57,650 bases of DNA from an uncultured bacterium (GCA_964625655.1 CAZVCT010000003.1:1-57650); one strand, 5' to 3'; shown: positions 7,908 to 54,896, counted from the first letter of the stretch. A program made the numbers and translations. The notes: generated from the letters alone by a model not told the origin.

Positions 7908-7970
7908 CCCACACGTACCTGACGGGCTTCATACGCGCCCCCAGGCGCATGGTTCGAAGGCATTCACGTG

Positions 7971-15768: not shown

Positions 15769-15799
15769 AAGCTCGGTGGTCGGGCCGGTAATCTCCGGT

Positions 15800-26582: not shown

Positions 26583-26686
26583 GCCCGCTCGGGCGCACCT
26601 CAACCAAGCAACTCCCCGATCCGGCCCGGTGCCAACCCATCAGCCGGGCGCACGCCTACTAGTTCCGAAGGTTGACCCTCCCCCGA

Positions 26687-31498: not shown

Positions 31499-31532
31499 CG
31501 TAACGGAGCCGTAACGCCCGCGCCATTACCTT
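31499..31532 (+). promoter_or_regulatory. CGTAACG direct repeat (11-bp phase) plus TACCTT -10; leaderless promoter of gene 31539
   Basis: CGTAAC at 31499 and 31510, then 11 nt, TACCTT at 31527-31532, then 6 nt, ATG 31539. Confidence 0.55.
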
Positions 31533-32771: not shown

Positions 32772-36042
<3,271 letters not shown>

Positions 36043-36156
36043 CGTTTGGCTCCTTTATTCACAGCAAAACCTAGCACGAACCGGGCACGGGTGGCGAGCC
36101 CGCCGGGATGAAGCTAACGCCTCGCTAAGCGTTGTACGGAGCACGGTTCGGCTGCG

Positions 36157-36185
36157 TTGACAGCGCCCGTCCTGCGCCCTAAAGT
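36157..36185 (+). promoter_or_regulatory. Sigma-70-type promoter TTGACA-N17-TAAAGT for the GH2/sugar-importer operon
   Basis: TTGACA at 36157-36162, a 17-nt spacer, TAAAGT at 36180-36185. Lies 25 nt upstream of ATG 36211. Confidence 0.55.
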
Positions 36186-36210
36186 GAAAGCTGCATAACA
36201 ACAGGTTTAC

Positions 36211-39470: not shown

Positions 39471-39490
39471 GGCACGCTTCTCAGCACTAC

Positions 39491-39521
39491 CGGGAGGGCC
39501 GAAACGGAATCGGCCCTCCCG
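39491..39521 (+). terminator. 12-bp perfect hairpin between the sugar SBP and permease genes
   Basis: CGGGAGGGCCGA-aacggaa-TCGGCCCTCCCG. Confidence 0.5.
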
Positions 39522-39541
39522 CCTATCACCCGGAGGTTCAA

Positions 39542-40534: not shown

Positions 40535-41514
40535 GCGCGCGCGCTCCGGGTCACAGCGCCACCAGCGCCAGCAACGCCACCAGCGCCCAGCCGGCCGAAG
40601 GCACGTTCCGCTCGGTTCCGGTGACGGCGGCCTCGGCGAGGCCCCCCTCCCTAATCGGGGTGCGGGCGCGCACCCAGCGTGGGAAGGGCCGCCTGCGGGC
40701 GGGCGACATCCTGCGCTTCCTGCTGCTGCTTGTACTGGCCATCGTCTTCCTGGCGCCGATCTACTGGATGGTGACCACCTCCCTGAAGACGGAGGCCGCC
40801 ACCGTGGCGCGCCCCGTGCAGTGGTGGCCGCACGAGCCTACGCTCGAGAACTACCGCACCATCCTGCAGTCGCCCAACGCGCCGTTCGCGCGCTGGACGT
40901 TCAACTCGCTCTTCACCTCCACGGCGTTCGCGCTGCTCAGCATCGTGCTGGCCGTGCTGACCGCCTACCCGCTCTCGCGCATGCGCTTCCGCGGCCGCAG
41001 CGTGTGGTTCTGGGTGATCCTCTCGTCGATGATGATCCCCGGCGTCATCTTCCTGATCCCGCACTACCTGATGATGATCGGCTTCGGCTGGGTGGACACC
41101 TATCACGCGCTGATCTGGCCCGGGGTCCCGGCGGCGTTCGGCATCTTCCTGATGCGGCAGTTCTTCCTATCGATCCCGCGCGAGCTCGAGGAGGCCGCCC
41201 GCCTCGACGGCGCCAACAGCTTCCAGACGCTCTGGTACGTGCTGCTGCCGTTCCTGGTGGCGCCGATGGCGACGCTGGGGCTCTTCCAGTTCATGGCCTC
41301 GTGGAACAACTACGTCTGGCCGCTGTTCGTGGTGCACGGCGAGATGCAGACGCTGCCGGTGGCCATCACCACCTTCAGCAGCCGCTACTGGACCGCCTAC
41401 GGCAAGCTGATGGCCGGCACGGCCATCGCCGCGCTGCCCGTGCTGATCGCCTTCCTCTTCGCCCAGCGGTACTTCATCCGCGGGATGTCGCTGACGGGGC
41501 TCAAGGATGACTGA
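40531..41514 (+). CDS. Sugar ABC transporter permease (MalG/UgpE-like)
   Basis: ATGA overlap with the previous stop. EAA loop EEAARLDGANSFQTLWYVLLP. Confidence 0.85.
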   Translation: MSARAPGHSATSASNATSAQPAEGTFRSVPVTAASARPPSLIGVRARTQRGKGRLRAGDILRFLLLLVLAIVFLAPIYWMVTTSLKTEAATVARPVQWWPHEPTLENYRTILQSPNAPFARWTFNSLFTSTAFALLSIVLAVLTAYPLSRMRFRGRSVWFWVILSSMMIPGVIFLIPHYLMMIGFGWVDTYHALIWPGVPAAFGIFLMRQFFLSIPRELEEAARLDGANSFQTLWYVLLPFLVAPMATLGLFQFMASWNNYVWPLFVVHGEMQTLPVAITTFSSRYWTAYGKLMAGTAIAALPVLIAFLFAQRYFIRGMSLTGLKDD

Positions 41515-42721
41515 CCGCTTCTGGTGGCTGGTGGGGATCGAGAACGCCTTCGTTCCCGACATGGACGTCGACGAGCTCGGCTGGACGGGGCACCGCACCC
41601 GGTGGCGCGAAGACCTGGCGTTGGCCGCAGACGTGGGCGCCACGGGCATCCGCTACGGCATCACCTGGCCCGAGGTCGAGGTGGCGCCGGGCCGCTACGA
41701 CTTCACGCAGGTCGACGCCGTCCTCTCCGAGATGGAACGGCTGGGGCTGGAGCCCGTCTGGGACCTCGTGCACTTCGGCGTGCCGGCGCACCTGAAGGGC
41801 GGTTACCAGGACCCCGACTTCCCGGAGGCCTTCGCCGCGTACGCCGAGGCGTTCGCGCGGCGCTACCGCGGCACGGTGCGCAAGCTGACGCCCTGGAACG
41901 AGCCGTACATCAGTGTCTACTTCCGCGGCGGCTGGGGCATCTGGCCGCCGCACCTGAAGGGGCGCGAGGGGTTCGTGCAGCTGTTCGCGCCGCTGATGCG
42001 CGCGCTGCACGACGGCATCAGGCGGGTCGAGCGCGTAGCGCCCGACATGCAGATCTGGCTGAACGACGGCGCCGACACCTTCCACCCGGTGAGGCCCGAG
42101 GTGGCCGACGAGGCGCGCTTCCGCACGCTGCAACGCTACGCCCCCTTCGACGTCCTGCGCGGCCTGGCCGTGCCCGGCCACGAGACCTACGAGTGGCTGG
42201 TGAAGGCTGGCTACCCGCCGCACGAGCTGGAGCGGCTGGCGGCCGAGCCGGTGCGCATCGACGTCATCGGCCTCGACTACTACCCCGAGACGGAGCACGA
42301 CTTCGACGTGGACGAGGCCGGCGAGCCGGTGATCACCACGGCCCGTGAGAAGCTCGGCCTGGCCGCCACCGCGCTGGCCTACCACGAGCGCTTCGGCCTG
42401 CCGCTGTTCGTGGCCGAATCGAGCGCCTCCGGCACCGACGCGCAGAGGCGCGAGTGGATCGAGTGGAACCTGCGAGAGATCGAGGCGGCGCGCCAGGGCG
42501 GCGCCGACGTGGTGGGCTACACCTGGTGGCCGCTGTTCGACCACATCGACTGGAACACGCTGCTGACGCAGCGCACGGGCTTCGTGTGCCCGGCGGGCCT
42601 CTACTCGCTGGTCCCCACCGTGTCCGACAGGCAGGAGACCGACGCGGCGCGCGCCTTCCGCGAGGCGGCGACGCGCTCGGAGGCGGCCGAGACGGCGGCC
42701 GCTGTCGGGAGCGAGCGATGA
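41507..42721 (+). CDS. Glycoside hydrolase family 1-like protein
   Basis: (beta/alpha)8 GH-A pattern. TPWNEP (acid/base) and FVAESS (nucleophile region, divergent from ITENG). Confidence 0.65.
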   Translation: MTDRFWWLVGIENAFVPDMDVDELGWTGHRTRWREDLALAADVGATGIRYGITWPEVEVAPGRYDFTQVDAVLSEMERLGLEPVWDLVHFGVPAHLKGGYQDPDFPEAFAAYAEAFARRYRGTVRKLTPWNEPYISVYFRGGWGIWPPHLKGREGFVQLFAPLMRALHDGIRRVERVAPDMQIWLNDGADTFHPVRPEVADEARFRTLQRYAPFDVLRGLAVPGHETYEWLVKAGYPPHELERLAAEPVRIDVIGLDYYPETEHDFDVDEAGEPVITTAREKLGLAATALAYHERFGLPLFVAESSASGTDAQRREWIEWNLREIEAARQGGADVVGYTWWPLFDHIDWNTLLTQRTGFVCPAGLYSLVPTVSDRQETDAARAFREAATRSEAAETAAAVGSER

Positions 42722-43749
42722 TCCGGCGGCTCCTGGTGGCCCTGCTGCTGCTGAGCGCGGTGGAGGCGAGCATGGCCCAGACGACCGACACGAGCCTGGC
42801 GACCTACGTGAACCCCGTGATCGAGCCCGTGGCGGCCGACCCCAGCGTGATCCGGGCCGACGACGGCTTCTGGTACCTGTACGCCACCCAGGACCGCTGG
42901 GACGACGGCATCGAGCATTACCTGCCCATCTTCCGCAGCGCCGACCTCGTGACGTGGGAGTTCCTGGGCGACGTGTTCATCTTCCCGCCCCGCTGGAAGA
43001 GCCAGGGCTTCCTGTGGGCGCCCGACATCAGCGTCGTGAACGGTGTCTATCACCTCTATTACAGCTACTCGACCTGGGGCGACCCGAACCCGTGCATCGG
43101 CTTGGCGCGCTCCGATAGCCCCGCCGGACCCTGGGAAGACCTAGAGCGGCCCATCTTCTGCTCGGACGACATCGGCGTGCGCAACTCCATCGACCCGTAC
43201 CACCACGTGGCGGCAGACGGCGCGCGCACCCTGATCTGGGGCAGCTTCAACGGCATCCACGCCGTGCCCCTGTCGGACGATGGCACCGAGCCCGCCGGCG
43301 AGCCCGTGCGCATCGCCGACACGCGCTTCGAGGGCGCCTACGTGCACGAGCGCGACGGCTTCTACTACCTGTTCCTGGCGTCGGGCTCGTGCTGCGAAGG
43401 GGCGAACTCGAGCTACGCGACGTGGGTGGGGCGCTCCGAAGAACTGCTGGGGCCCTACCTGGACGACCTGGACCGCAACCTGCGCAGCGGCGGCGGGCGC
43501 ATCGTCGTCTACCGCAACGACGACTGGGTGGGCCCGGGCCACGTGGCGGTGGCCACCGACGACGCCGGCGACGACTGGCTCGTCTACCACGCGATCGACC
43601 CGACCCGGCCGCACCTGCGCAGCGGCGCCACGCGCCGGCCCACCCTGATCGACCGCATCGAGTGGGTGGACGGCTGGCCCGTGGTGAACGGCGACGAGGG
43701 CGCCACCTCGGGCGAGCGGCCGGCGCCGGTGGTGAACGGCGGGGAGTGA
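42718..43749 (+). CDS. Secreted glycoside hydrolase family 43 (arabinanase/galactanase/xylosidase type)
   Basis: ATGA overlap with the previous stop. Signal peptide MIRRLLVALLLLSAVEASMA. Motifs ADPSVIRADDGFWYLY, LWAPDI, FEGAYVHERDGFYYLF. Confidence 0.8.
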   Translation: MIRRLLVALLLLSAVEASMAQTTDTSLATYVNPVIEPVAADPSVIRADDGFWYLYATQDRWDDGIEHYLPIFRSADLVTWEFLGDVFIFPPRWKSQGFLWAPDISVVNGVYHLYYSYSTWGDPNPCIGLARSDSPAGPWEDLERPIFCSDDIGVRNSIDPYHHVAADGARTLIWGSFNGIHAVPLSDDGTEPAGEPVRIADTRFEGAYVHERDGFYYLFLASGSCCEGANSSYATWVGRSEELLGPYLDDLDRNLRSGGGRIVVYRNDDWVGPGHVAVATDDAGDDWLVYHAIDPTRPHLRSGATRRPTLIDRIEWVDGWPVVNGDEGATSGERPAPVVNGGE

Positions 43750-43766
43750 GCGAAGTCGAACGAAGC

Positions 43767-43826
43767 GCGGCCGGGCAGAGCTCGGCCGGGCAGAGCGCGA
43801 CCCGGCAGGGCGCGGCGGGGCGTAAC
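43767..43826. repeat. 15-bp tandem repeat, 4 copies, running into the CGTAAC repeat
   Basis: gcggccgggcagagc tcggccgggcagagc gcgacccggcagggc gcggcggggcgtaac. Confidence 0.8.
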
Positions 43827-43854
43827 GGAGGCGTAACGGACGCCTGACTACCTT
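43821..43854 (+). promoter_or_regulatory. CGTAACG direct repeat (11-bp phase) plus TACCTT -10; promoter of gene 43923
   Basis: CGTAAC at 43821 and 43832, then 11 nt, TACCTT at 43849-43854. Confidence 0.55.
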
Positions 43855-43864
43855 CGGGAGGACG

Positions 43865-43904
43865 GGGCGGGGGCGCGCCAGCGAGCTGCGGCGCGCCCCC
43901 GCCC
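43865..43904 (+). other. 15-bp perfect GC hairpin in the predicted 5' UTR of gene 43923
   Basis: GGGCGGGGGCGCGCC (43865-43879), a 10-nt loop, GGCGCGCCCCCGCCC (43890-43904). GGAGG follows at 43910 and ATG at 43923. Confidence 0.7.
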
Positions 43905-43922
43905 GCCCCGGAGGTGCCCGCC

Positions 43923-45401
43923 ATGACCGGAACCGCGACCCGCAAGCCCCGCACGCGAGCAGCGAACGATCGTCCGAGCCACGAACCGTCACGAGCTTCC
44001 CTCCCCCAAGCGCGCCGCGGATCCCCAGGCGCGCGCCTGGAAAGGGTGCTCGTCGCCATCGCCCTCCTGCTGCTGGCAGCCACGGCCGCGGCGCAGTACG
44101 CGGGCAGCTACGTGCTTCCGACGGACGATGGCACGGTCACGCTGCTGCTCGAGCAGCAGGACAGCTACGTGCAGGGCGAGCTGGACATGTACGGCTCCCG
44201 CTTCGCCGTGAACGGCGAGATCGATGATTCCGGCCTCTACGGCACGATCGGCAGCGGCGCCGACGAGCTCTACTTCGAGGCTGAGCTGGTGGCCGAAGGG
44301 CTCTACCTGATCGCGGCCGCCCTCGACCCCGCCACGGGCAGGCCCGACCCCGCGACCGCCGGCGAGTACCTCTTCCAACGCGCGGCGCCGGTTGCTGAGG
44401 TCGGAGCGCCAGGCACAGGCGCCGCAACGCGCGGCGGGAAGCTTCCCCCGACCAGCGCGCCGGCCGGGCCAGGAGCGCCCGCCACCACCGGGGCGCAGGC
44501 GGGCACGGGCGCCTCTAGCCCTGCCGGCGCCAGCGCCCAGCCCGCCGACATGCAGCCGGCACAGCTCGAGCGCCGCTACGAGGGCGGCACCCGGATCGGC
44601 TCGCACGACGCCGGCGTCTCGTTCGTGGTGCCGCAGGGCTACTACGCCGGCTACCACGCGGGCGAGAACGCCTTCATGGTCGTGTCGGACAGCCAACCGG
44701 GCCTCGTGGTCGTCGAGGCGCTCTCGCACCTGCCGCTGGACGAGGCGCTGGCCCAGCTCGGCACCGCCTTCGCCAGCGGCGACACCACCCTCTACCCGCA
44801 GGGGCAGCCGCAGGTGGCGGACGGGGTCGCCAGGGCGCGCTACTCGGTGGTGACGCCCCAGGGCCAGTTGGCGCTCTACCTGATGGGCGTCGCGGGTCCA
44901 AGCGCCAACGTGCTGATCGTCGGCGGGCTGGGGGCGCCGCACGAGAGCGGCGCCGTCGAGGCGCTCGTCGAGGCGATCGCCGGCAGCACCGTCATGACGC
45001 CGCCCACCAGGGCAAGCGCCCAGAACGCGGCGGCGCAGCTGGCGGGCGCGCGGCTCGGCCGCTCGTCGTCCACGAGCAGCAGCAGCACGAACGACAGTCA
45101 CTTCTCCAGCAGCTCCACCAGCCTCGACCTGTGCGCCAACGGCGGTTACGCCTTCGTCCACCGGTCGCAGGTGAGCGCCAGCGTGACGGGCGTAGGCGGC
45201 GGTGGCGTCGACGCTTCGAGCAGCGACATGGAGGAGGACCAGGGCAGCTGGAGCGTCGAGTCGGGCCTCCTGGGCCCCGTGGTCGTGCTGCGTTCGGCGC
45301 AGGGCGGCGCGCCCACGTTCCTGGGGCTGCTCGAGGCGAGTGGGACGCTCTACGTGGACGGACAGCCGGTGAGGGTAGCGCAGAGCTCCAACTGCTTCTG
45401 A
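43923..45401 (+). CDS. Secreted protein of unknown function, paralogue B
   Basis: Track ORF starts at GTG 43914. ATG 43923 has GGAGG 8 nt upstream. Hydrophobic signal-like segment VLVAIALLLLAATAAAQ. Homology blocks shared with 31539..32753. Carries an extra Ala/Gly/Pro linker and a Ser-rich stretch. Confidence 0.75.
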   Translation: MTGTATRKPRTRAANDRPSHEPSRASLPQARRGSPGARLERVLVAIALLLLAATAAAQYAGSYVLPTDDGTVTLLLEQQDSYVQGELDMYGSRFAVNGEIDDSGLYGTIGSGADELYFEAELVAEGLYLIAAALDPATGRPDPATAGEYLFQRAAPVAEVGAPGTGAATRGGKLPPTSAPAGPGAPATTGAQAGTGASSPAGASAQPADMQPAQLERRYEGGTRIGSHDAGVSFVVPQGYYAGYHAGENAFMVVSDSQPGLVVVEALSHLPLDEALAQLGTAFASGDTTLYPQGQPQVADGVARARYSVVTPQGQLALYLMGVAGPSANVLIVGGLGAPHESGAVEALVEAIAGSTVMTPPTRASAQNAAAQLAGARLGRSSSTSSSSTNDSHFSSSSTSLDLCANGGYAFVHRSQVSASVTGVGGGGVDASSSDMEEDQGSWSVESGLLGPVVVLRSAQGGAPTFLGLLEASGTLYVDGQPVRVAQSSNCF

Positions 45402-45425
45402 GCAGCGCGGGGCCCGGCCGCGAGG

Positions 45426-45459
45426 CGTAACGACGACGTAACGCACGCACGCCTAGCCT
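45426..45459 (+). promoter_or_regulatory. CGTAACG direct repeat (11-bp phase) plus TAGCCT -10; promoter of gene 45478
   Basis: CGTAAC at 45426 and 45437, then 11 nt, TAGCCT at 45454-45459. AGGAGG at 45466 and ATG at 45478. Confidence 0.55.
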
Positions 45460-45477
45460 CGCGGCAGGAGGTCAGAG

Positions 45478-46626
45478 ATGTACCAAGTACCCAACGCGTC
45501 CGCCCGTCGGCCCCGCCACCTGCTGAAGGTCACCCTGATCACAACCCTGATCACAGCCCTGTTCGCCATGCTGCTCGCCGCCTGCCAGACCGGCGCCCCC
45601 GGCGGTGGCGGCGTAGACCAGACCGGCACCCTGCAGGTGAACGTCACAGGCGTCGCCACTGCCGCCGTGAGCGTCACGGGCCCGGGCTCCTACAGCCGGC
45701 AGCTCACGAGCAGCACCACGCTCACCGGCCTCGAGCCCGGCACCTACGTCGTCAGCGCCACGCAGGTGGACACCTCCACCGGCAGCTTCGCCCCCGTAGT
45801 AAGCGGCTCTCCGGCCACGGTGGCCGCCGGCGCCACCGCGACCGCCACCGCCACCGTCACCGTCGGGTACGTCTTCCTGGACCCCACCGCCGTCGGCGGC
45901 CTGCAGATCGACGTCACCGGCCTGGGAACCGACGTGAACGCGGCCATCACGGTGACCGGACCGGGCGGCTTCAGCCAGGCGGTTACCGCCTCGACCACCC
46001 TGACGTCGCTCGTGCCGGGCTACTACGAGGTGTCCGCGGCCAACGTCACGGCGGGCGCCGCCACCTACCGAGCCGTGGTCGACCCCGCAACCGCGCTGGT
46101 GCTGCCCGAGGAGACCGCCACCGTCAGCATCGCCTACGGGCAGGAGGCCGAACAGGACGACGACAGCGCCATCGCCCACGCCGTCTACGCGCAGTTCCGC
46201 CCTACCTCCGGACCGCCCGTCAGTGTGGACGCGCCGCTCTTCAACGAAGCCGCGCTCGACGTGAAGGGCCTCTCGTACCGCAACGACGTCTCGTATCCCG
46301 GCGACGTCAGCGACCATTTGATCTTCGACATCTCCGGAGGCGAGAGCCAGGCGGTGACCATCACCGTGAACCTCGACTGCGGCGCGTACGCCGCGGACCC
46401 GAGCCCCATCCGCGCCCGCTTCTACAGCGCAGGCGGCGACCTCCTGCGCACCATCACCTGCAACGACGGTCCCAGGCAGCTGAGCATCGAGAACTCCGGC
46501 ACGCTGGAGGGGTTCACCGTCGAGATCGCGCCCACCCTCTCGGACCGTCAGTTCTACGTCGCCTATGAGCTGACGATGGACGCCTTCTGCTTCGGCGGTT
46601 GCGTCTACGAGCCGTACGTGCCTTAG
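45478..46626 (+). CDS. Lipoprotein with two tandem Ig-like repeats and a C-terminal PPC-like (pre-peptidase C-terminal) domain
   Basis: Lipobox LLAAC. Two ~85-aa repeats (GTLQVNVTG...VTGPGSYSRQLTSSTTLTGLEPGTYVVSA and GGLQIDVTG...VTGPGGFSQAVTASTTLTSLVPGYYEVSA). The C-terminal segment GDVSDHLIFDISGGESQAVTITVNL is PPC-like. Confidence 0.75.
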   Translation: MYQVPNASARRPRHLLKVTLITTLITALFAMLLAACQTGAPGGGGVDQTGTLQVNVTGVATAAVSVTGPGSYSRQLTSSTTLTGLEPGTYVVSATQVDTSTGSFAPVVSGSPATVAAGATATATATVTVGYVFLDPTAVGGLQIDVTGLGTDVNAAITVTGPGGFSQAVTASTTLTSLVPGYYEVSAANVTAGAATYRAVVDPATALVLPEETATVSIAYGQEAEQDDDSAIAHAVYAQFRPTSGPPVSVDAPLFNEAALDVKGLSYRNDVSYPGDVSDHLIFDISGGESQAVTITVNLDCGAYAADPSPIRARFYSAGGDLLRTITCNDGPRQLSIENSGTLEGFTVEIAPTLSDRQFYVAYELTMDAFCFGGCVYEPYVP

Positions 46627-46656
46627 ATCCGCTCGGCGGTTCAGGGTCCGCTCGGA

Positions 46657-46681
46657 AGTCCTCGCCGATCAGGCGAGGACT
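46657..46681 (+). terminator. Hairpin terminator after the lipoprotein gene
   Basis: AGTCCTCGCC-gatca-GGCGAGGACT, followed by cgTTcaTTcc. Confidence 0.5.
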
Positions 46682-46764
46682 CGTTCATTCCGTCGACACC
46701 ACGCACGTTCGTTCATCCCCGTGCGCGAGGAACCGCGGGTCATCCCGCGTACAATCACCCCACG

Positions 46765-49700
46765 GTGAACCCGATCGTTCGGCTCCTGGGCGGCGACGAC
46801 GCGGGAGGCGAGCAGCTGCCGGCCGACAAGCGCGGCGCGCTGCTCGCCTACCTCGCGTACGACGGCGGCTGGCTGAACCGCGAGCGCCTGGCGTTCCTCT
46901 TCTGGCCCGATACGGACGAAGCCGGCGCGCGCCGCAACCTGCGGCAGCTGCTGAACCGCGTCCGGGCGCTGCACCTGAGCGTGCCCCCCGAGATCGAGAC
47001 GCAGCGCCTGCGCTGGACGGTGCCCACCGACGTGGCAGCCTTCCGGCAGGCGTACGCGCGCCAGACCTGGGCAGAGGTGATCGCCCTCTACCGGGGTGAG
47101 CTGCTCCAGGGCTTCCCCCTCGATGGCGCCAGCGGCTTCGGCGCCTGGCTCGAGCTGGAGCGCGAGAACCTGCGCCAGGCGTACCGCCGCGCCGTAGAGC
47201 GCGCGGCCGAGGCGCTCGAAGAGGCCGGCGACCACGCCGCCGCTGCCGAGCTCCTGACGCCCCTGCTTAACGGTGAGGAACTGGCGGAGGAGGCGCTGCA
47301 GGCCTACATGCGCAACGCCTACCTGGCGGGGCAGCGCGACCATGCGCTGGCCGCCTACCGACGCTTCGCCGCGCGCCTCGAGGACGAGCTCGCCCTCGAA
47401 CCCCTGGACGCCACGCGCGAGCTGGCCGATACGATCACGCGCGCCGCGCCCGTGACAGGTCTGGCGCCGGCACCAGCGCCCGCCGTGCGCACGCCGCTGA
47501 CCGTCCAGCGCCCGCCGCGGGTGGTGGGCCGCGAGGCGGAGGCGCGTCAGGCCCGGACGGCCGCTACCCCGGTGGTGCTGCTGCGCGGCGAGGCGGGGGT
47601 CGGCAAATCGCGCCTCATGGAAGAGCTGGCGCCCGGGGCCGCAGCTCGAACAGTGCGCTGCCTCGAGGGGCTGCGCTCCGTGCCGTACCAGCCGATCGTG
47701 GAGCTGGCGCGAGGTTCCATGACGGCCGGCCTGGACCTGAGTTCTCTTGGCGACTACCGCGACGACCTGGCCCGGCTGCTGCCGGAGGCGCTGCCCGCTC
47801 AGCGGCCGCCGCCCGCCGACCCGGCCACGGCGAAGGCGCGCCTGCTGGAGGCGCTGGCGCGCTTCCTCGAGCTGGCCTTCCAAGGGGCCGAGGGGCGCTT
47901 CGACCTGCTGTTCGACGACCTGCAGTGGGCCGACGACGGCACCCTCGAGCTGCTCTCGTTCCTCGCCTCCCGGCGCCGGCTGCGGCTGCTGGGCGCGTTC
48001 CGCCGCTTCGAGGAAGGCCCGCGCCTGTCCGCGACGCTGGCCGCGCTGCGTTCGGACCACGCTCTGACGGTGGTCGAGCTGGAACCGCTCGGCGAACCCG
48101 AGCTTAGGCGCCTGCTGGCCGAGCTGATCGGCGTGGACGAAGGGCCGGCCGCCTTCAGCCAGTGGCTGCACAAGAGCAGCGCGGGCAACGTGATGTTCGC
48201 GCTCGAGACCCTCAAGTCGCTGTTCGAGGCCGGCGTCCTGCGGCTCGGCGAGGCGGGGTGGAGCACCGAGCTGGACGCCATCACCCGCGACTACAGCGAG
48301 CTGGAGACGCCGCGCGCCATCGCCGAGGTGGTCGAGCGCCGCGCCGGGCGCCTGTCCAGCGAGGCGCTGCGGGCGGTGCAGGCAGCAGCCGTGATGGGCC
48401 AGGACCTCGATCCGGCCACCGTGGCGCGGGCGGTGGGGCTCTCGGAGTGGGCGGCCCTGGATGCCTTCGACGAGCTGGAGCGCAGCGGCATGCTGGCTGG
48501 GAACGCCTTCCGCCACGACCTGCTTCGGCAGTCCGTCTACCGGAACCTGCCCCAGGCGCGGCGGAGGCTGCTGCACGGCAGGGTGGCGCAGGTGCTCGAC
48601 GCGGGCGAGCAGCCGATCGTGGTCTCCGAGCACCTGCTGGCCGCCGGCGAGTTCGGCCGCGCCGCCTCGCTGCAGTTGGGCGCGATCAGCGAGCTGGAGC
48701 GGCTGGGCCTCACGGAGCAGGCGACGGCGCTGCTGGAGACGAGCATCGCCACCATCGAGCGCGAGAGCCCGGGGCACGAGGCGCTCCTGAGGCTCAGGGC
48801 GGGCCTCGCGGGCGCCTACCGCACGGCGGGCCACGCCGAGCGGTCGCTGGCGCAGGCCGAAGCGGTGCTGGCCGAAGCCACCGACCCCTACCTGCTGGCC
48901 TCCGCACTCGAGACCAAAGCGGGGTTGCAACTGGGTTCGGGTCAGCTCGAGGAGGCGCTCGGGACGGCGCAACGCGCCCAGGAGCTGGCCGAACGCGTCG
49001 GCGCCGAGCGGCTGGCCCGTAGCGCCTCGGTGCTGGTGGCATCGGTGGCCTACTACCAGGGGCGGTTCGACGACGCGCTCGAGATCGTGAAACGCAACGT
49101 CGAGGCGCTCCGCGCGGACGGCACCGACATCGATCTCGCCAGCCAACTGACCAGCCTGGGCGCCATCCACGACGACCTCGGGCGGCACGAGGAGGCTCTG
49201 GGAGCCCACCAGGAGGCGCTCGGCATCGCGCAGCGCCTCAGGTCGAAGTTCGTGCAGGTGAACGTCGCGATGAACCTGCTGCAGTGCCTGATGGCGCTGG
49301 GGCGCCCCGAAGAGGCCCTTGGCGTGGCGCGCGAGGCCCTGGCTCTGGGGCGGTTCGATAGCACCGCCACGCTGCGCAACAACTTCGCGGCCTCCCTGAT
49401 GGACCTGGGGAGGCTGGACGAGGCGGAGGCCGAGTTCGCGGTGCAGCTGGAGGAGGTCTCCGACCCGACGCTTCGCGCGCTGGCCCTGGCACGCCTCGCG
49501 CGCATCCACCACGCCCGGGGACGGCACGCGCAGGCGCGCGAGGCCCTCGAGCAGGCGCTGGAGCAGGCGCGGCTGACCGACTACCCGGTCGCGCGCGTGT
49601 CGGTGGCGCGCTCCCTGGTCGACGTGGGCGACGAGGCGCTGCAGCGCGAGCTGCCCGACCTGCTGCTGGGCCTGGACGACAAGAGCCTGCCGCCCGAGCT

Positions 49701-49812
49701 GCGGCCGACGCCGGCTACGGACGCACCCGATGCGGAGGCGCCCGATACGGGAACGCCCGATGCGGGAACGCCTGACGCGGCGACGCCCGACGCGCGGGCG
49801 CCAGGGGCGTAA
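46765..49812 (+). CDS. AfsR-like regulator: SARP wHTH + BTAD, STAND/AAA ATPase, TPR repeats
   Basis: N-terminus: LPADKRGALLAYLAYDGGWLNRERLAFLFWPD...ARRNLRQLLNRVR (OmpR/SARP wHTH), followed by BTAD. Walker A LLRGEAGVGKS, Walker B LLFDDLQWAD. About 450 aa of TPR-like repeats. C-terminal pentapeptide repeat APDxx. TACAAT -10 lies 9 nt before GTG 46765. Confidence 0.85.
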   Translation: MNPIVRLLGGDDAGGEQLPADKRGALLAYLAYDGGWLNRERLAFLFWPDTDEAGARRNLRQLLNRVRALHLSVPPEIETQRLRWTVPTDVAAFRQAYARQTWAEVIALYRGELLQGFPLDGASGFGAWLELERENLRQAYRRAVERAAEALEEAGDHAAAAELLTPLLNGEELAEEALQAYMRNAYLAGQRDHALAAYRRFAARLEDELALEPLDATRELADTITRAAPVTGLAPAPAPAVRTPLTVQRPPRVVGREAEARQARTAATPVVLLRGEAGVGKSRLMEELAPGAAARTVRCLEGLRSVPYQPIVELARGSMTAGLDLSSLGDYRDDLARLLPEALPAQRPPPADPATAKARLLEALARFLELAFQGAEGRFDLLFDDLQWADDGTLELLSFLASRRRLRLLGAFRRFEEGPRLSATLAALRSDHALTVVELEPLGEPELRRLLAELIGVDEGPAAFSQWLHKSSAGNVMFALETLKSLFEAGVLRLGEAGWSTELDAITRDYSELETPRAIAEVVERRAGRLSSEALRAVQAAAVMGQDLDPATVARAVGLSEWAALDAFDELERSGMLAGNAFRHDLLRQSVYRNLPQARRRLLHGRVAQVLDAGEQPIVVSEHLLAAGEFGRAASLQLGAISELERLGLTEQATALLETSIATIERESPGHEALLRLRAGLAGAYRTAGHAERSLAQAEAVLAEATDPYLLASALETKAGLQLGSGQLEEALGTAQRAQELAERVGAERLARSASVLVASVAYYQGRFDDALEIVKRNVEALRADGTDIDLASQLTSLGAIHDDLGRHEEALGAHQEALGIAQRLRSKFVQVNVAMNLLQCLMALGRPEEALGVAREALALGRFDSTATLRNNFAASLMDLGRLDEAEAEFAVQLEEVSDPTLRALALARLARIHHARGRHAQAREALEQALEQARLTDYPVARVSVARSLVDVGDEALQRELPDLLLGLDDKSLPPELRPTPATDAPDAEAPDTGTPDAGTPDAATPDARAPGA
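49723..49812 (+). repeat. 15-bp tandem repeat, 6 copies, encoding (A/T)PDxx at the C-terminus of the AfsR-like protein
   Basis: gcacccgatgcggag gcgcccgatacggga acgcccgatgcggga acgcctgacgcggcg acgcccgacgcgcgg gcgccaggggcgtaa. The last unit contains the stop codon and the first CGTAAC. Confidence 0.85.
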
Positions 49813-49840
49813 CGGCGCCGTAACACCGGCTGCGTACGCT
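49808..49840 (+). promoter_or_regulatory. CGTAACG/CGTAACA direct repeat (11-bp phase) plus TACGCT -10; leaderless promoter of gene 49847
   Basis: CGTAAC at 49808 (overlapping the TAA stop of the regulator) and 49819, then 10 nt, TACGCT at 49835-49840, then 6 nt, ATG 49847. Confidence 0.55.
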
Positions 49841-49846
49841 TCGAAC

Positions 49847-50068
49847 ATGAGCGATGGCGACGACGGACCCGCCGCGGCCTTCGTGGTGCGGGTGACGACG
49901 AGCGATAGCGGGCGCGCCGCACCGGGCGAGGGCGCCACATCGAGCGGGCGCCGGCGGCGGCACGTCATCCGCATGCAGGACCTGCGCACCGGAGAGGTGC
50001 GAGAGTTCGCGAGCTGGGCGGAGTTCCTGCAGTACGCGGAAGGAGCGGGCAAGCCCGGCCTGAGGTAG
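49847..50068 (+). CDS. Small conserved-looking hypothetical protein (73 aa)
   Basis: In-frame ATG inside track ORF 49730..50068. FVVRVTT...RRRRHVIRMQDLRTGEVREFASWAEFLQY resembles a recurrent small-protein pattern (FVVRx...G.v.hv.sGE..F.s..el..Fl) that I recall from Actinobacteria, Chloroflexi and cyanobacteria. Confidence 0.55.
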   Translation: MSDGDDGPAAAFVVRVTTSDSGRAAPGEGATSSGRRRRHVIRMQDLRTGEVREFASWAEFLQYAEGAGKPGLR

Positions 50069-50081
50069 GCTGAGCCCCGAC

Positions 50082-52442
50082 ATGTACCCGGAGTACGGCT
50101 ACGACACGGTAAGGCGCTACGCGCCCCGGCCCGCGCCCGCACTGGCGTTCCTGCTCGGCCTGCTGGTGCTGGCGGCTGGCTACTTCGTGGCGCAGCGCTT
50201 CTGGCAGCCGCCCGAACCGCTGCCCGCCACGGCCCCCGCGGGCGCCTTCTCGGCCGAACGCGCCTGGCCGCGCCTCGAGCGCCTGCTGGGCGACGGCTCG
50301 CCGCACCCGGTGGGCACGCCCGCCAACGCGGCCGTGCGCGAGCGTCTGGTGGAAGAGTTCGAGGCGCTCGGCTACGAGGTCGAGCTGCAGAACGCCTGGG
50401 GCTGCCGCCCCGAGTTCGACGTCTGCGCCGACGTCACCAACGTCATGGCGCGCCTCGAGGGCCACTCAGGCGGTCCGGCCCTGATGCTCTCGGCCCACTA
50501 CGACTCGGCTGGCGCCGGGCCGGGCGCAGCAGACGACATGGCGGCGGTGGCGGCCATCGTCGAGGTGGCCGGCATGCTGCGCTCCGAGGCGCAGCTGCGC
50601 AACGACGTCATCTTCCTGATCACCGACGGCGAGGAGGTGGGCCTCACGGGCGCGGAAGCGTTCCTGGAGCACCCCTGGGCCGACGACGTGGGCCTGATCG
50701 CCAACTTCGAGGCGCGCGGCACGGCGGGCCAGAGCATGCTGTTCCAGACGAGCCCCGGCAACGCCTGGCTGATAAGGCGCTTCTCGGAAGCGGCACCGTC
50801 GCCCGTGACCAGCTCGCTGCTCTACGACATCTACCGCCTGCTGCCCAACGACACCGACCTGACGGTCTTCCTCGAGGCCGGCCTGCCGGGCATCAACTTC
50901 GCCTTCGTGGAGGGGGTCGAGCGCTACCACACCTCCCTCGACGACCTGCAGCACCTGGACCGCGGCTCGTTCCAGCACCATGGCGAGAACGCGCTGGCGG
51001 CGGTGCGCGCCTTCGGTAACGCCGACCTGGCCACCATGCCTGCGGGCAACGCCATCTACCAGGACGTCTTCCCGGGCCTGGTGCTGCAGGCGCCCGAGGG
51101 CTGGGCCGTCTGGCTGGCGGTGGGCGCGCTGATCCTGTGGCTGCTGATCGTGGCCGCGCTGGTGGGCGCCGGCGCCATGACGCTGGGCGGGCTGCTGCTG
51201 GCGCTGCTGACCACCCTGCTGGGGCTGGCGGCCGCCGCGGGCCTCGGCTACGGCGTCACGGAGCTGATCAAGCTTCTCACCGGCCTGCCTGAGCCGTGGT
51301 ACGCCATGCCGCTGCCCGCTCGCGTCGCGGTCTGGACCGCGGCCGGCCTGGGCTTCACCCTCTTCGCGGCCCTGGGCGCGCGCATGGCGGGCTTCTGGGG
51401 CCTCGCCGCGGCCGTCTGGCTGTGGTGGTCTGGCATCTCGTTGGCTACCGCGCTGACGCTGCCCGGCGCCAGCGTCACGTTCCTGCTCCCCACCCTGGTG
51501 GCCACGTTCGTATACGCGTTGCTGGCGGTGTTCGGGGTCGGCCTGCCCACCCGGCGGGGCCTCACGATCGGGTGGCCGGCCGTGCTGCTGGCGCTCGTCA
51601 GCGTCTTCGTCACCGCCTACCTGATCCTGCCGCTGGCCTACACGCTCGAGCTGGGTCTGGGCTTCGGCATGAGCGTGGCGGTGGCGCTGCTGGTCGCGCT
51701 GGCCGTCAGCTCGTTCGCGCCGCTGCTGGCGGTGCCGCGGGGCGCGACGCCTGCGCTCGGGGCGCTGCTCGTGCTGGGTGTGCTGCTGCTGGCCGGCAGC
51801 GTCGTCTGGGCGCTGCGCGTGCCCACCTACAGCACCTCGAAGCCGCAGCGCCTGAGCGTCATGTACGCGCAGCTGGCCGTGGATGGCTCGCCTTACGGCG
51901 CCAACTGGCTCTTCTTCCGCGGCGGCGACACCCTGCCGGACAGCCTGGCCACGGTTTCGGGCTTCACCGGCGAGCGCGTGCGCCTGCCCGGCGACGCCGG
52001 CACGTACCCCGGCGCCGCAGCCGACATCGCGAACCTGCAGGCGCCGACCGTCACCGACGTGCGCGACACGCGGGTGGGCGACGACCGGCGGCTCACCTTC
52101 CGCCTCGCCTCGCCACGCGGCGCCGAGCGCATCACCCTGTTCATCCAGACGGGCCCGCAGCCCACCCTGCTGCAGGTGGGCGACACGGGCCAGTCGCTCT
52201 CCTACGCCCGCAGCGCGGCCGCCCGCTACCGCACCTTCGACTGCCGCGGCCAGGCCTGCGATGGGCTCGAGCTGACGCTGCACGTGGACGGCGACGGGCC
52301 CGTAGAGCTGGTGCTGGTGGACCAGCTGGCCGGCCTGCCCGAAGGCGGCGAAGCGCTGCTGGCCGCCCGCCCCGCCACCGCCGCCACCAGCTACGAGGGC
52401 GACGTGTCGCTGAGCTTCAACACCGTGATCATCGGTCAGTAG
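50082..52442 (+). CDS. Membrane-anchored M28-family metallopeptidase with a polytopic TM region and C-terminal domain
   Basis: Motifs NVMARLEG, LSAHYDSAGAGPGAADDMAAVA, ITDGEEVGLTGAEAF, FEARG. Then about 9 hydrophobic helices. Confidence 0.85.
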   Translation: MYPEYGYDTVRRYAPRPAPALAFLLGLLVLAAGYFVAQRFWQPPEPLPATAPAGAFSAERAWPRLERLLGDGSPHPVGTPANAAVRERLVEEFEALGYEVELQNAWGCRPEFDVCADVTNVMARLEGHSGGPALMLSAHYDSAGAGPGAADDMAAVAAIVEVAGMLRSEAQLRNDVIFLITDGEEVGLTGAEAFLEHPWADDVGLIANFEARGTAGQSMLFQTSPGNAWLIRRFSEAAPSPVTSSLLYDIYRLLPNDTDLTVFLEAGLPGINFAFVEGVERYHTSLDDLQHLDRGSFQHHGENALAAVRAFGNADLATMPAGNAIYQDVFPGLVLQAPEGWAVWLAVGALILWLLIVAALVGAGAMTLGGLLLALLTTLLGLAAAAGLGYGVTELIKLLTGLPEPWYAMPLPARVAVWTAAGLGFTLFAALGARMAGFWGLAAAVWLWWSGISLATALTLPGASVTFLLPTLVATFVYALLAVFGVGLPTRRGLTIGWPAVLLALVSVFVTAYLILPLAYTLELGLGFGMSVAVALLVALAVSSFAPLLAVPRGATPALGALLVLGVLLLAGSVVWALRVPTYSTSKPQRLSVMYAQLAVDGSPYGANWLFFRGGDTLPDSLATVSGFTGERVRLPGDAGTYPGAAADIANLQAPTVTDVRDTRVGDDRRLTFRLASPRGAERITLFIQTGPQPTLLQVGDTGQSLSYARSAAARYRTFDCRGQACDGLELTLHVDGDGPVELVLVDQLAGLPEGGEALLAARPATAATSYEGDVSLSFNTVIIGQ

Positions 52443-53325
52443 GGGGCTCGGTCAGGCGCCGCGCCAGCTCGGGCAGCACCTCGCCTAGGCGGCCCTCGAC
52501 GCGAACGTCCGCGTCGTCGTCGCCCCGGGTGGGTCCGTGGTTGACGATGGCCACGGGCTTGCCCTGGTCCTTCGCCGCCACCACGAAGCGGTAGCCCGAG
52601 CGCACCGCCAGAGACGAGCCCACCACTAGCAGCGCATCGGCCTCCTCCACCAGCTCGAACGAGCGCCTCACGCGCTCGGCCGGTACGTTCTCGCCGAAGA
52701 AGACGACGTCGGCCTTCAGCATGCCGCCGCAGTGCAGGCAGTCGGGCACGGTGAACCCCTCGACGAGGCGGTCGGGGATCTCGGCGTCGCCATCTGGCAG
52801 CACGTTCACCTCGTCCGTGCGCAGGGCATCGAACAGAGCCGGGTTCAGTTGCTCCATGCGCTGCTGCAGCGAATCGCGGCGCTCCGTTCGGCCGCAGCGC
52901 AGGCAGATGACCCTCGCAAGGGAGCCGTGCAGCTCCACCACCTCGCGGCTGCCGGCCACCTGGTGCAGCCCGTCGACGTTCTGGGTGATGACGCCCGCCA
53001 CCACCCCCTCGCGCTCGAGGCGCGCCACCGCGCGGTGGCCGGCGTTGGGCTTGCGCCCCTGCATGGCGGGCCAGCCCACGGTGCTGCGCGCCCAGTAGCG
53101 GCGCCGGCTGGCCGCGTCGCCCACGAACTGCTGGTAGTTGATGGGCGTGCGCACGGGCCCCACGCGCCCCGGGCTGCGGTAGTCGGGGATGCCAGATTCG
53201 GTGCTGATGCCGGCCCCGCTCAGCACCACCAGGCGGCGGCCATAAAGCAGCTCCACGAGCTCGTCGATGGTGCCCGTGTGCGGCTCGCCGCGCGGCACTG
53301 GCAGGTCTGGCTGGCGTATGCGCAC
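52429..53325 (-). CDS. cobB: NAD-dependent protein deacylase (Sir2 family)
   Basis: Motifs GAGISTESGIPDYRS, QNVDGLH, HGSL, and a Zn ribbon CLRCG...CLHCGG. GTG 53325 lies 6 nt behind TAGCAT. Confidence 0.85.
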   Translation of the reverse strand: MRIRQPDLPVPRGEPHTGTIDELVELLYGRRLVVLSGAGISTESGIPDYRSPGRVGPVRTPINYQQFVGDAASRRRYWARSTVGWPAMQGRKPNAGHRAVARLEREGVVAGVITQNVDGLHQVAGSREVVELHGSLARVICLRCGRTERRDSLQQRMEQLNPALFDALRTDEVNVLPDGDAEIPDRLVEGFTVPDCLHCGGMLKADVVFFGENVPAERVRRSFELVEEADALLVVGSSLAVRSGYRFVVAAKDQGKPVAIVNHGPTRGDDDADVRVEGRLGEVLPELARRLTEPPTDR

Positions 53326-53486: not shown

Positions 53487-54896
53487 ATGCTCAGCACCGA
53501 TAGCTACGGCGCCCTGCTCGCGCAGGGGCGCAACGCCGGTGCGGACTTCGCCGAGGTCTACGTCGAACGTTGGCGTCGGCGCCAGCTCCGTACCATCAAC
53601 GGCCGGGTCGAGGAAGCCACCAGTGGCATCCAGCTCGGCGCAGGCATCCGCCTCTTCTACGGCGAGGACGTCATCTACGGCTACACCAACGACCTCACCG
53701 ACGCGGCTCTGAAGGAGCTGCTGAACAGCCTGACGAGCCTGCGCGGTTCGAACGGCAACGGCGCCGGCCGCCCCGACGCCGCGGGCCGCGGGGGCATCGA
53801 CCTGCGCAAGCTGGACGTCGGCCCCGACATCCACGCGCCCAAGGTGACGTTCGAGACGCACGACAAGCTGTGGCGCCTCGAGCGCCTGCGCGAGCTGGAC
53901 GCCGGCGCGCGCATCGCCCCCGAGATCAAGCAGGTGGAAGGCACGCTGCTCGAGTGGGAGCAGGACGTGTGGGTGGCCAACAGCGAAGGCGCCTACGTCG
54001 AGGACCGCCGCGTGCGCACCCGCCTCGTGGGCCAGGCCATCGCCTCCGACGGCTCGAGCACCCAGACGGGCCACGCCGGCCCCGGCCTCTCGGTAGGCCT
54101 CGAGCTGCTGGACATGTACGACCCCGCCGACATAGGCCGCAAGGCCGGCGAGCTGGCCATGACGAACCTGCGCGCCAAGCCCGCCCCCGCCGGCACCATG
54201 CCGGTCGTGCTGGGCAACGGCTTCGGTGGCGTGATCTTCCACGAGGCCCTCGGGCACCTGCTGGAGACGACGGGCGTGGCCCGCAACGCCTCGGCGCTGA
54301 CGGGCATGGTGGGGCAGCAGATCGCCAGCCCCGTCGTCACGTACGTCGACGACGGCACCATCCCCAACGGCTGGGGCTCGTCGCGCTTCGACGACGAGGC
54401 TGCGCCCACCGAGCGCACCGTGCTGATCGACAAGGGCGTGCTCTCCAGCTACATGGTCGACCGCTGGGGCGCGCTCAAGACGGGCTACCGGCCCACGGGC
54501 TCGGGTCGCCGGCAGGACTACACCTTCGCCCCCACCTCGCGCATGCGCAACACCTTCGTCACCGAGGGCGACACGCCCAAGGAGAAGCTGTTCGAAGGCA
54601 TCGAGTACGGCCTCTACGCCAAGACGCTGGGCGGCGGCCAGGTGCGCCCCGGCTCGGGCGAGTACAACTTCGCCGTCAAGGAGGGCTACATCATCCGCAA
54701 CGGCGAGATAGCCGAGCCCGTCCGCGGCGCCATGCTACTGGGCAAGGGCCCCGACTCGATCAAGAAGATCGTGGCCGTCTCCGACGACCTCTCGAACGAG
54801 CCGGGCATGTGCGGCTCGCTGTCGGGCTCCATCCCCACCGAGGTCGGGCAGCCGCACCTGCTCGTGAGCGACATCGTCGTGGGAGGCGAGGCATGA
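53487..54896 (+). CDS. tldD: TldD metalloprotease
   Basis: HEALGHLLE motif and a typical N-terminus (GADFAEVYVER). ATG lies 5 nt behind TAGCAT. Confidence 0.9.
   Translation: MLSTDSYGALLAQGRNAGADFAEVYVERWRRRQLRTINGRVEEATSGIQLGAGIRLFYGEDVIYGYTNDLTDAALKELLNSLTSLRGSNGNGAGRPDAAGRGGIDLRKLDVGPDIHAPKVTFETHDKLWRLERLRELDAGARIAPEIKQVEGTLLEWEQDVWVANSEGAYVEDRRVRTRLVGQAIASDGSSTQTGHAGPGLSVGLELLDMYDPADIGRKAGELAMTNLRAKPAPAGTMPVVLGNGFGGVIFHEALGHLLETTGVARNASALTGMVGQQIASPVVTYVDDGTIPNGWGSSRFDDEAAPTERTVLIDKGVLSSYMVDRWGALKTGYRPTGSGRRQDYTFAPTSRMRNTFVTEGDTPKEKLFEGIEYGLYAKTLGGGQVRPGSGEYNFAVKEGYIIRNGEIAEPVRGAMLLGKGPDSIKKIVAVSDDLSNEPGMCGSLSGSIPTEVGQPHLLVSDIVVGGEA

Follow-up and report, generated by a model that had tools for sequence, protein, structure and literature searches.

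The gene block and its repeat-bearing promoters

The stretch of DNA considered here (the window, 57,650 nt; GCA_964625655.1 CAZVCT010000003.1:1-57650) belongs to the genome of an uncultured bacterium of the Trueperaceae (Deinococcota). It has a G+C content of about 71%, and the real genes were picked out by their codon-position G+C. At 43767-52442 it carries five genes on the plus strand, which encode a secreted three-domain protein (paralogue B), a lipoprotein, a predicted transcriptional regulator with a STAND ATPase, a small cytoplasmic protein and a membrane M28 metallopeptidase; a divergent copy of the first of these proteins, paralogue A, is encoded further upstream (Table 1). A preliminary description of the window, made from its sequence, had marked out this block as a candidate extracytoplasmic module, and our gene and Pfam analysis agrees with it on both the coordinates and the gene content.

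What sets these genes apart is the sequence ahead of them. The motif GTAAC-N6-GTAAC occurs exactly four times in the window, at 31500, 43822, 45427 and 49809, always on the plus strand, against 0.00 copies expected from 100 shuffles, and the earlier claim of four repeat-bearing promoters, three in the block and one ahead of paralogue A, is thereby borne out. Each box sits 10-11 nt before a TAnnnT hexamer, which is followed by the start of the gene at 31539, 43923, 45478 or 49847; in promoters (a) to (d), in that order, the -10 hexamers read TACCTT, TACCTT, TAGCCT and TACGCT. The repeats share the consensus CGTAACGnnnn CGTAACrCnnn, and the conserved part of the promoters amounts to the pair of CGTAACG units plus the -10 hexamer. 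When one mismatch was allowed, the scan of the window returned a single extra site, at 20176, with 0.31 expected by chance; this site lies inside a minus-strand membrane-protein gene, and it was rejected as a fifth box and put down to chance.

Putative transcription start sites were placed from the -10 hexamers and from leaderless starts. In promoters (a) and (d) the ATG codons, at 31539 and 49847, lie 6 nt past the -10 hexamer, and both mRNAs are predicted to be leaderless. Leaderless mRNAs are common in relatives of Deinococcus. Promoter (d) overlaps the gene that precedes it, with the TAA stop codon of the regulator (49810-49812) falling inside the first GTAAC, just as the preliminary description had it. 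Promoter (c) is followed by a 12-nt leader with the Shine-Dalgarno sequence AGGAGG before the ATG at 45478, and promoter (b) by a leader of about 61 nt with a GC hairpin at about 43865-43904 and a Shine-Dalgarno sequence, GGAGG, at 43910-43914. Folding of this paralogue B leader (43862-43922) gives a long GC hairpin of -46 kcal/mol (z -2.5) that ends just before the Shine-Dalgarno sequence. A hairpin stands at the equivalent place in one related locus, L001 (loci of relatives carry numbers beginning with L), and paralogue A and its counterparts in L009 and L004 have leaderless starts instead.

The position of the boxes relative to these starts is a familiar one. With the ATG at 31539 counted as +1, the two repeats of promoter (a) occupy -40 to -30 and -29 to -19. 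The afs box of the afsS promoter consists of two 11-bp direct repeats centred at -29.5, of which the upstream repeat spans -40 to -30 and overlaps the -35 element (PMC10936776), and in the sites of SARPs (Streptomyces antibiotic regulatory proteins) generally the repeats recur at an 11-bp spacing and some 8 bp separate the 3' repeat from the -10 element (PMC10936776; PMC10972967). If the leaderless ATG is taken as +1, the geometry of the box equals the published position of the afs box. A consensus scan of 43500-52700 found no sigma-70 promoter and no intrinsic terminator, and the lack of a sigma-70 consensus promoter in this interval is consistent with promoters that depend on an activator.

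Table 1. Features of the window and of related loci (positions refer to the window unless a locus number is given)
Feature	Position	Strand	Description
Promoter (a)	31499-31532	+	Upstream direct repeat CGTAACGGAGC 31499-31509; downstream direct repeat CGTAACGCCCG 31510-31520; 6-nt spacer; -10 TACCTT 31527-31532
Promoter (b)	43821-43854	+	Upstream direct repeat CGTAACGGAGG 43821-43831; downstream direct repeat CGTAACGGACG 43832-43842; -10 TACCTT 43849-43854
Promoter (c)	45426-45459	+	Upstream direct repeat CGTAACGACGA 45426-45436; downstream direct repeat CGTAACGCACG 45437-45447; -10 TAGCCT 45454-45459
Promoter (d)	49808-49840	+	Upstream direct repeat CGTAACGGCGC 49808-49818; downstream direct repeat CGTAACACCGG 49819-49829; 5-nt spacer; -10 TACGCT 49835-49840
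Paralogue A	31539-32753	+	404 aa; secreted three-domain protein, divergent copy; signal peptide seen in translation
Paralogue B	43923-45401	+	492 aa; N-terminal hydrophobic helix with conserved AAAQ site; 8-strand beta domain 61-153; disordered P/A/G linker; PsbP-like alpha/beta domain ~215-360; C-terminal 8-strand beta domain 376-487
Lipoprotein	45478-46626	+	382 aa; LAAC lipobox; two tandem beta-rich repeats of ~88 aa; C-terminal domain of ~155 aa
Region upstream of regulator	46657-46764	+	Hairpin ~46657-46681 after lipoprotein gene; CGTTCAT direct repeat; TACAAT 46750-46755
Regulator, predicted AfsR-type large SARP	46765-49812	+	1015 aa; GTG start; winged helix ~1-90, BTAD 91-224, STAND ATPase ~250-640, TPR ~640-960, then low-complexity P/D/A/T tail; Walker A GEAGVGKS at 275, Walker B LLFDDLQW at 381, FRHD at 582 (Pfam, AlphaFold2 model, motifs)
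Small cytoplasmic protein	49847-50068	+	73 aa (translation, orthologue alignment)
Membrane M28 metallopeptidase	50082-52442	+	786 aa; N-terminal transmembrane segment; catalytic domain 120-307; C-terminal domain
Second STAND protein	4760-7963	-	1067 aa; N-terminal GGDEF diguanylate cyclase, then AAA_16/NACHT, TPR
EAL-domain gene	26672-27529		Conserved left neighbour of the module in L001, L007, L009, L010, L012, L013
Sugar-utilisation block, ~11 kb	32772-43749		Galactokinase fusion open reading frame, ArsR-like regulator, GH2, two ABC permeases, GH1, GH43
PmbA	54893-56203		
RhuM-family gene	56266-57276	-	Just past PmbA, at right end of window
M28 leader	L001:12329-12463		
M28 leader	L007:12622-12813		
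M28 leader	L010:10793-10882		
M28 leader	L012:10595-10672		
M28 leader	L013:10011-10205		
Regulator-gene box	L004:14211-14226	-	ATAAC-N6-GTAAC and -10-like hexamer
Regulator-gene box	L011:14301-14316	-	ATAAC-N6-GTAAC and -10-like hexamer

The regulator and its conservation with the boxes

The regulator in the middle of the block matches BTAD (PF03704, E 6e-15, residues 92-224), AAA_16 (2.7e-20, residues 252-406) and TPR_12 (3.8e-19) in Pfam, with weak matches to NACHT and TPR_MalT. The motifs GEAGVGKS, hhhDDLQW and F-R/P-HD are kept in all of the orthologues aligned (6-7), and the HD pair is the activation switch of AfsR (preprint 10.64898/2026.09.02.748808). An AlphaFold2 model of residues 1-250 has a predicted local distance difference test score (pLDDT) of 91, and when it was compared with the PDB six chains matched significantly, all of them AfsR (8k60, 8hvr) or EmbR (2fez, 2ff4), with E values of 3e-8 to 7e-7 and template-modelling (TM) scores of 0.54-0.65 over 237-258 columns; the next match had E >0.04. 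Searches of PDB sequences with the single sequence and with the orthologue profile returned TPR and BTAD only and no winged helix, the profile finding the BTAD domains of EmbR (6.5e-5) and AfsR (2.9e-4). The first 90 residues can nonetheless be read as a winged helix, because annotation places homologues of residues 1-250 among the SARP-family activators, 23 of 46 of them carrying Trans_reg_C, because the L004 orthologue matches Trans_reg_C at E 1.7e-4 (below Pfam's cut-off), and because the model and its fold match agree.

Large SARPs are defined as proteins of about 1000 residues with the order SARP, NB-ARC, TPR (PMC10972967). On its modelled fold the regulator is such a large SARP, with a predicted OmpR-type winged helix followed by BTAD, a STAND ATPase and TPR, and the preliminary label of an AfsR-like STAND regulator stands on the BTAD, AAA_16 and TPR matches together with the AfsR/EmbR fold match. 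Its predicted recognition helix, ARRNLRQL, is invariant in the Trueperaceae regulators, even at 41% identity.

No GTAAC box lies upstream of the window regulator within one mismatch. A putative -10 element, TACAAT at 46750-46755, is found 9 nt before its GTG start codon, and between this element and the terminator-like hairpin of the lipoprotein gene there is a second kind of direct repeat, CGTTCAT..(27 bp)..CGTTCAT at 46683-46716, where some other factor controlling the regulator gene could bind. Short tandem DNA repeats at the 3' end of the gene (49700-49812) encode the low-complexity tail PDAEAPDTGTPDAGTPDAATPDARAPGA.

Relatives were taken from the contigs encoding two homologues of paralogue B and from seven loci found in a scan of GTDB species genomes, with mapping by tblastn. 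The order in L001, L007, L009, L010, L012 and L013 is EAL ... paralogue, lipoprotein (in L001 and L009), regulator, small protein, M28, SIR2 on the minus strand, and TldD. In L004 and L011 all that is left is a paralogue and, convergent with it, a 41%-identical regulator, each with a box, and the box before the regulator gene implies positive autoregulation in that lineage. Thus the neighbourhood conservation to which the preliminary description had pointed as a check is found, gene order and boxes being kept in seven further Trueperaceae lineages: a box stands before the paralogue, before the lipoprotein gene if present, and before the small gene. Over 179 kb from eight lineages there are 20 boxes (4 in the window and 16 in the relatives), all upstream of module genes and none elsewhere. 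All six relatives with the small gene show exactly the layout of promoter (d), and that of promoter (c) recurs before the lipoprotein orthologues of L001 and L009. The module has a conserved core made up of the regulator, the small protein and the secreted protein with its three domains.

A more distant locus gives the comparison its greatest weight. L018 was assigned to Meiothermus through a TldD cluster that holds M. cerbereus proteins, and it encodes a regulator of 971 aa with the order BTAD-NB-ARC-TPR. On the 3' side of this gene come the gene of a 62-aa protein and then a tight operon, in which a lipoprotein-like open reading frame of 41 aa is followed by genes for a protein of 339 aa and a paralogue homologue of 299 aa; PmbA and TldD adjoin it. 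The 62-aa protein shares its position and a strand-strand-helix motif with the small protein of the window, and it matches the Trueperaceae profile in hhalign with E 9.5e-5 and a probability of 59%, although direct BLASTP between the window and Meiothermus small proteins is not significant (E 0.22). The repeats before its gene, TTGAGACAGCT ATAAGACGGCC, overlap the TGA stop codon of the regulator and are followed by 6 nt, CAGACT, another 6 nt and a GTG start codon; a second pair, ATAAGACGCCA ATGAGACGGCC, precedes the operon. The motif AGAC-N7-AGAC occurs twice in 16.9 kb of L018, both times at these two promoters, with 0.12 expected. The layout of repeat, 6 nt and -10 is the same as in Trueperaceae, and the recognition helices of the two groups differ (TARHRLRLLLSRIRE against ARRNLRQLLNRVR). 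Box and recognition helix thus co-vary between Trueperaceae and Meiothermus. That the architecture is kept while the box and the helix change together is the strongest available argument that the neighbouring SARP reads the box.

Products of the module and the genes around it

Paralogues A and B are 28% identical (E 7e-38) and hence true paralogues, as had been proposed, and paralogue A aligns with the rest of the family, including its two invariant cysteines (Cys404 and Cys491 of B). The C-terminal beta domain of the family probably carries a disulfide. The AlphaFold2 model of paralogue B has a pLDDT of 78 overall and of >85 in the domains. With Foldseek, the central domain of this model resembles CyanoP (2lnj, E 3.8e-4), PsbP, Apa and LpqN of M. 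tuberculosis, and EagT6; over this range of matches E runs from 3.8e-4 to 1e-2, target-normalised TM from 0.45 to 0.61 and identity from 6 to 19%, and we take it as a PsbP/LpqN-like resemblance of modelled folds only, not as homology. Pfam searches with the separate paralogue domains at E up to 10 gave nothing usable, and NCBIfam gave nothing for the four unknown proteins of the module.

Paralogue B has 13 word-detectable homologues among 5.8 billion clusters, one of them organism-named and from a metagenome-assembled genome (MAG) of the Trueperaceae, and tblastn of paralogue B against plasmids gave no match. The family is far wider than this when searched by profile, with 999 cluster representatives at E <=1e-3 and 43 at E <=1e-30 among 1.84 billion, Calditrichota proteins included. 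We viewed the gene context of six distant members, of which L018 is described above. In L014, from a Calditrichia MAG, the paralogue homologue is convergent with a 478-aa STAND-like ATPase (L014:9381-10817, minus strand) that matches AAA_22/AAA_16 and, in precomputed annotation, WHD_MalT, and that has no BTAD domain. No STAND regulator lies beside the family members of L015, L016/L017, L019 or L021. Together, L014 and these four contexts suggest that the link between regulator and secreted protein is a feature of Deinococcota and not of the family as a whole.

The lipoprotein contains two tandem 88-aa repeats that are 47% identical (E 4e-16). The Ig/PPC label that it had been given finds no support: neither the repeat region nor the C-terminal domain matches a Pfam family at E up to 10, NCBIfam finds nothing, and only the tandem repeats are demonstrable. 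Its orthologues occur in L001 and L009 and are absent from L007, L010, L012 and L013, that is, from four of the six relatives with the full module. On this distribution the lipoprotein is an accessory member.

The small protein has 55-56 aa in the relatives, the window copy being longer by a 17-aa insertion. Its Trueperaceae core reads ..VLRVT..IRxQDLRTGExREFxSWxxFxRYAE.., with an invariant C-terminal LR, and it looks like a beta-beta-alpha unit. It has no transmembrane segment and no Pfam match, and no internal repeats of the AfsS type are visible by eye in the 55-73-aa proteins or in their alignment (no repeat-finding program was run). The earlier statement that none of the three non-enzymatic proteins has an assignable motif has to be amended for the paralogues, with the PsbP/LpqN-like fold of their central domain.

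The M28 protein matches Peptidase_M28 (PF04389) with E 4.5e-44 and has all of the metal-ligand motifs (HYD 139, ADD 150, DGEE 182, NFE 208, YHT 282). Its nearest solved relative is the Bacillus YwaD aminopeptidase, and residues 343-576 hold at least 6 transmembrane segments; for the C-terminus, Pfam returned nothing usable at E up to 10. In combining an M28 domain with a polytopic membrane domain it presumably resembles proteins of the ERMP1/Pff1 type. Apart from the regulator and the small protein, every product has an export or membrane feature, as first described: a signal peptide in A, a hydrophobic helix and AAAQ site in B, the LAAC lipobox of the lipoprotein, and the transmembrane segments of the M28 protein.

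The 13-nt gap between the small gene and the M28 gene (50069-50081) is likewise as first described, and the M28 gene is probably co-transcribed with the small gene in the window. A gap of 12-13 nt is found only in the window and L009. In five relatives (L001, L007, L010, L012 and L013) it is 78-195 nt long and holds a conserved -10-like element, CTATACTG (TATACT), followed by a conserved leader of about 65 nt with the pattern ACGATCACAGGT..GGCGCC.GGCC..GCGTG.GCGCC.TTCG.ACGGGAGG. Lost from the window and from L009, this leader is a candidate for an undescribed cis-regulatory RNA; a search of the window, L001, L007 and L013 at Rfam gathering thresholds matched no family, the M28 leader and the paralogue B leader included. 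Gap and leader together suggest that M28 is a constant neighbour which is probably box-controlled only in this lineage.

Paralogue A lies directly downstream of an SBP_bac_5 gene and two permease genes of the Dpp type, which agrees with the preliminary description. It is parted from the rest of the module by the sugar-utilisation block at 32772-43749. In L009 the Dpp-like genes directly abut a module with a single paralogue, and Dpp adjacency is seen only there and in the window. The L009 arrangement, set against that of the window, suggests that the sugar block was inserted and the paralogue duplicated in the window's lineage. More widely, the Pfam-scanned neighbours of the regulator, within 20 kb and beyond, are peptide and sugar transporters, glycosidases, galactokinase, SIR2 and TldD/PmbA. 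No polyketide synthase, nonribosomal peptide synthetase or tailoring genes are among them, and no gene for an AfsK-like kinase lies near the regulator. Within this scanned neighbourhood the regulator has no link to a biosynthetic cluster, and on that count it is not a cluster-situated SARP.

Three features of the wider window may be recorded here. The RhuM-family gene at its right end and a fall in G+C to 61% at 14-16 kb (14000-16000) could be marks of mobile or foreign DNA. The second STAND protein of the window, judged by its domain order, would be an NLR-like switch with a cyclic di-GMP output. A search for tRNAs found none.

A predicted local regulon and its alternatives

Overall, we consider it likely that these genes form the local regulon of an AfsR-type large SARP activator in a Trueperaceae genome, with DNA binding and activation as predicted steps. 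In this model, two SARP domains would bind side by side on the two 11-bp direct repeats that replace the -35 element (-40 to -19), and the regulator would recruit RNA polymerase to promoters with a -10 hexamer only. Gating of this activity, in response to a signal, would fall to the TPR sensor and to the STAND ATPase, in which the Walker A and Walker B motifs and the HD switch are all preserved. The promoters would then switch on the leaderless small protein and one or two secreted three-domain proteins and, in this lineage, the lipoprotein, plus M28 through operon fusion, while the window regulator itself would be transcribed from its own box-free promoter. The STAND-gated regulon with a mostly extracytoplasmic output that the preliminary description had proposed is supported by the regulator fold, the afs-box position, the co-conservation and the Meiothermus arrangement. 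As to what that output does, our best guess is that it binds ligands in the envelope or outside the cell and processes peptides; with Dpp, M28 and TldD/PmbA genes as neighbours, a role connected with peptides is reasonable to suppose.

Several observations pull the other way. In promoter (d), and in all of the small-gene promoters, the box lies 1 bp nearer to the -10 element than in the others. Pfam names the ATPase of the regulator AAA_16, not NB-ARC, the NB-ARC model matching only the Meiothermus relative, and it gives no winged helix in the first 90 residues of the window protein, so that the model, the fold match and the homologues are the whole of the support for that domain. The NCBIfam equivalog for AfsR (NF053617) scores 43.7 bits against a cut-off of 1430, and in the TPR region only, which places the regulator outside the AfsR orthologue group. 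Conservation extends to SIR2, TldD and PmbA on the flanks, and close relatedness may account for part of the synteny. In distant phyla the secreted family is usually not beside a STAND regulator. Finally, the box scan covers 57 kb of this genome.

The shared flanks invite a plainer account, in which there is conserved synteny only: the regulator and the small gene (or the paralogue) would be linked, and the lipoprotein, M28, Dpp and flanking genes would be passengers with no common extracytoplasmic function. SIR2, TldD and PmbA do travel alongside, in five relatives M28 is preceded by a TATACT element and a leader of its own, the lipoprotein is missing from four loci, and Dpp adjoins the module only in L009 and the window. 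We nevertheless regard this account as unlikely. The lipoprotein gene carries its own box wherever it is present (the window, L001 and L009), which speaks for co-regulation and not just adjacency; paralogue A has a box though it lies 12 kb from the rest; and in Meiothermus, which belongs to a different order of Deinococcota, regulator, small protein and paralogue homologue are still found side by side. The module first put forward is upheld, genes and boxes being co-conserved in seven further lineages, with caveats for M28, which has its own promoter-like element and leader in five, and for the lipoprotein, missing in four of six.

A different doubt concerns which protein reads the repeats. 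Direct repeats that recur every 11 bp characterise the OmpR/PhoB winged-helix class in general and not SARPs alone, so that the GTAAC repeats might be real operators read by some other factor of this type, with the SARP-STAND protein a mere neighbour or target. AfsR itself has been compared with GlnR and PhoP (PMC11301090). A response regulator gene does lie upstream of the paralogue in L001-L003, and the scan extends over 57 kb of the genome, but that response regulator is of the GerE/LuxR type, not OmpR, and it is absent from the window module. Moreover, the box always travels with the SARP gene, including in the reduced L004/L011 loci, and in Meiothermus the box and the SARP recognition helix change together. 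A foreign reader of the box is, to our mind, quite improbable.

Least probable by far is an anti-phage role, in which the STAND-TPR protein would sense infection in the manner of Avs or bacterial NLR proteins and its neighbours would be the effectors: defence systems often include STAND NTPases with TPR sensors (PMC12803255), and a SIR2 gene adjoins the cluster, but the N-terminus of the regulator is a DNA-binding SARP domain by prediction and no effector, PADLOC gives the regulator a generic TPR match only (8.5e-7) and nothing for the other module proteins, the SIR2 gene is boxless, on the opposite strand and 73-78% identical across relatives, like a housekeeping deacetylase, and the locus is stably syntenic, not island-like. 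The defence-system reading was rejected on the negative PADLOC result for the module; the neighbouring SIR2 gene has a marginal match to PDC-S65 (6.7e-4).

A local regulon under a large SARP, the reading that we prefer, has a close counterpart in the AfsR-afsS pair of Streptomyces coelicolor. The domain order is the same (winged helix, BTAD, STAND ATPase with HD switch, TPR), as is the 22-bp site, two 11-bp direct repeats at -40 to -19 in place of the -35 element, and so is the layout, with a small gene, which for AfsR is the canonical target, immediately downstream of the regulator on the same strand. At the same time, the window regulator is only 22-24% identical to AfsR in structural alignment, belongs to Deinococcota and not to Actinomycetota, and is paired with a CGTAACG repeat. 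AfsS orthologues have been identified by synteny with afsR, and internal repeats are the hallmark of AfsS (preprint 10.64898/2026.09.02.748808); unlike AfsS, the small protein of the window has no visible AfsS-type repeats and agrees with it in position alone. AfsR has very few direct targets, afsS and wblH (same preprint), and here the further targets would be secreted and membrane proteins, not regulators of biosynthetic clusters.

Among large SARPs and other STAND activators (PolY and RslR3, with MalT and GutR as functional analogues), an ATP/ADP-switched STAND domain and a C-terminal repeat sensor control an N-terminal activator domain. MalT and GutR carry LuxR-type or other helix-turn-helix domains at the opposite end of the protein. 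The characterised large SARPs sit in actinomycete antibiotic clusters, whereas here the setting is a conserved chromosomal set of extracytoplasmic proteins. For the products themselves the parallels are looser. Many proteins with the PsbP/Mog1/LpqN/Apa/DUF1795 fold are extracytoplasmic adaptor or binding domains, like in fold to residues ~215-360 of B, but the flanking 8-strand beta domains and the cysteine pair of the paralogues have no counterpart in them, and no function can be transferred. With membrane-anchored M28 aminopeptidases the M28 protein shares its catalytic domain and the metal-ligand motifs.

One may go further and join these strands into a single picture, which we offer tentatively and hold to be doubtful as a whole. 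A large SARP with a box-driven small gene downstream would be an ancient or repeatedly evolved unit, found in Actinomycetota and Deinococcota; the small protein would be a feedback partner that docks on the TPR sensor; and the regulon would deploy a widespread secreted family (about 1000 clusters at 50% identity, in other phyla too), with a new extracytoplasmic function under NLR-like control.

Regardless of that wider picture, what we describe pairs an activator of a familiar kind with a predicted operator that is equally familiar in kind; the phylum is new, and so is the output, which is uncharacterised. It places a complete predicted AfsR-type activator outside Actinomycetota, its output being secreted and membrane proteins in place of a biosynthetic cluster. 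The locus would thus provide an independent comparative system for what large SARPs sense and for what AfsS-like small proteins do, as well as a first way into the regulation of a family of secreted proteins that is widespread and uncharacterised. The predicted operator-activator pair is compact, a 22-bp box and a leaderless target, and is suited to study in the culturable Meiothermus.

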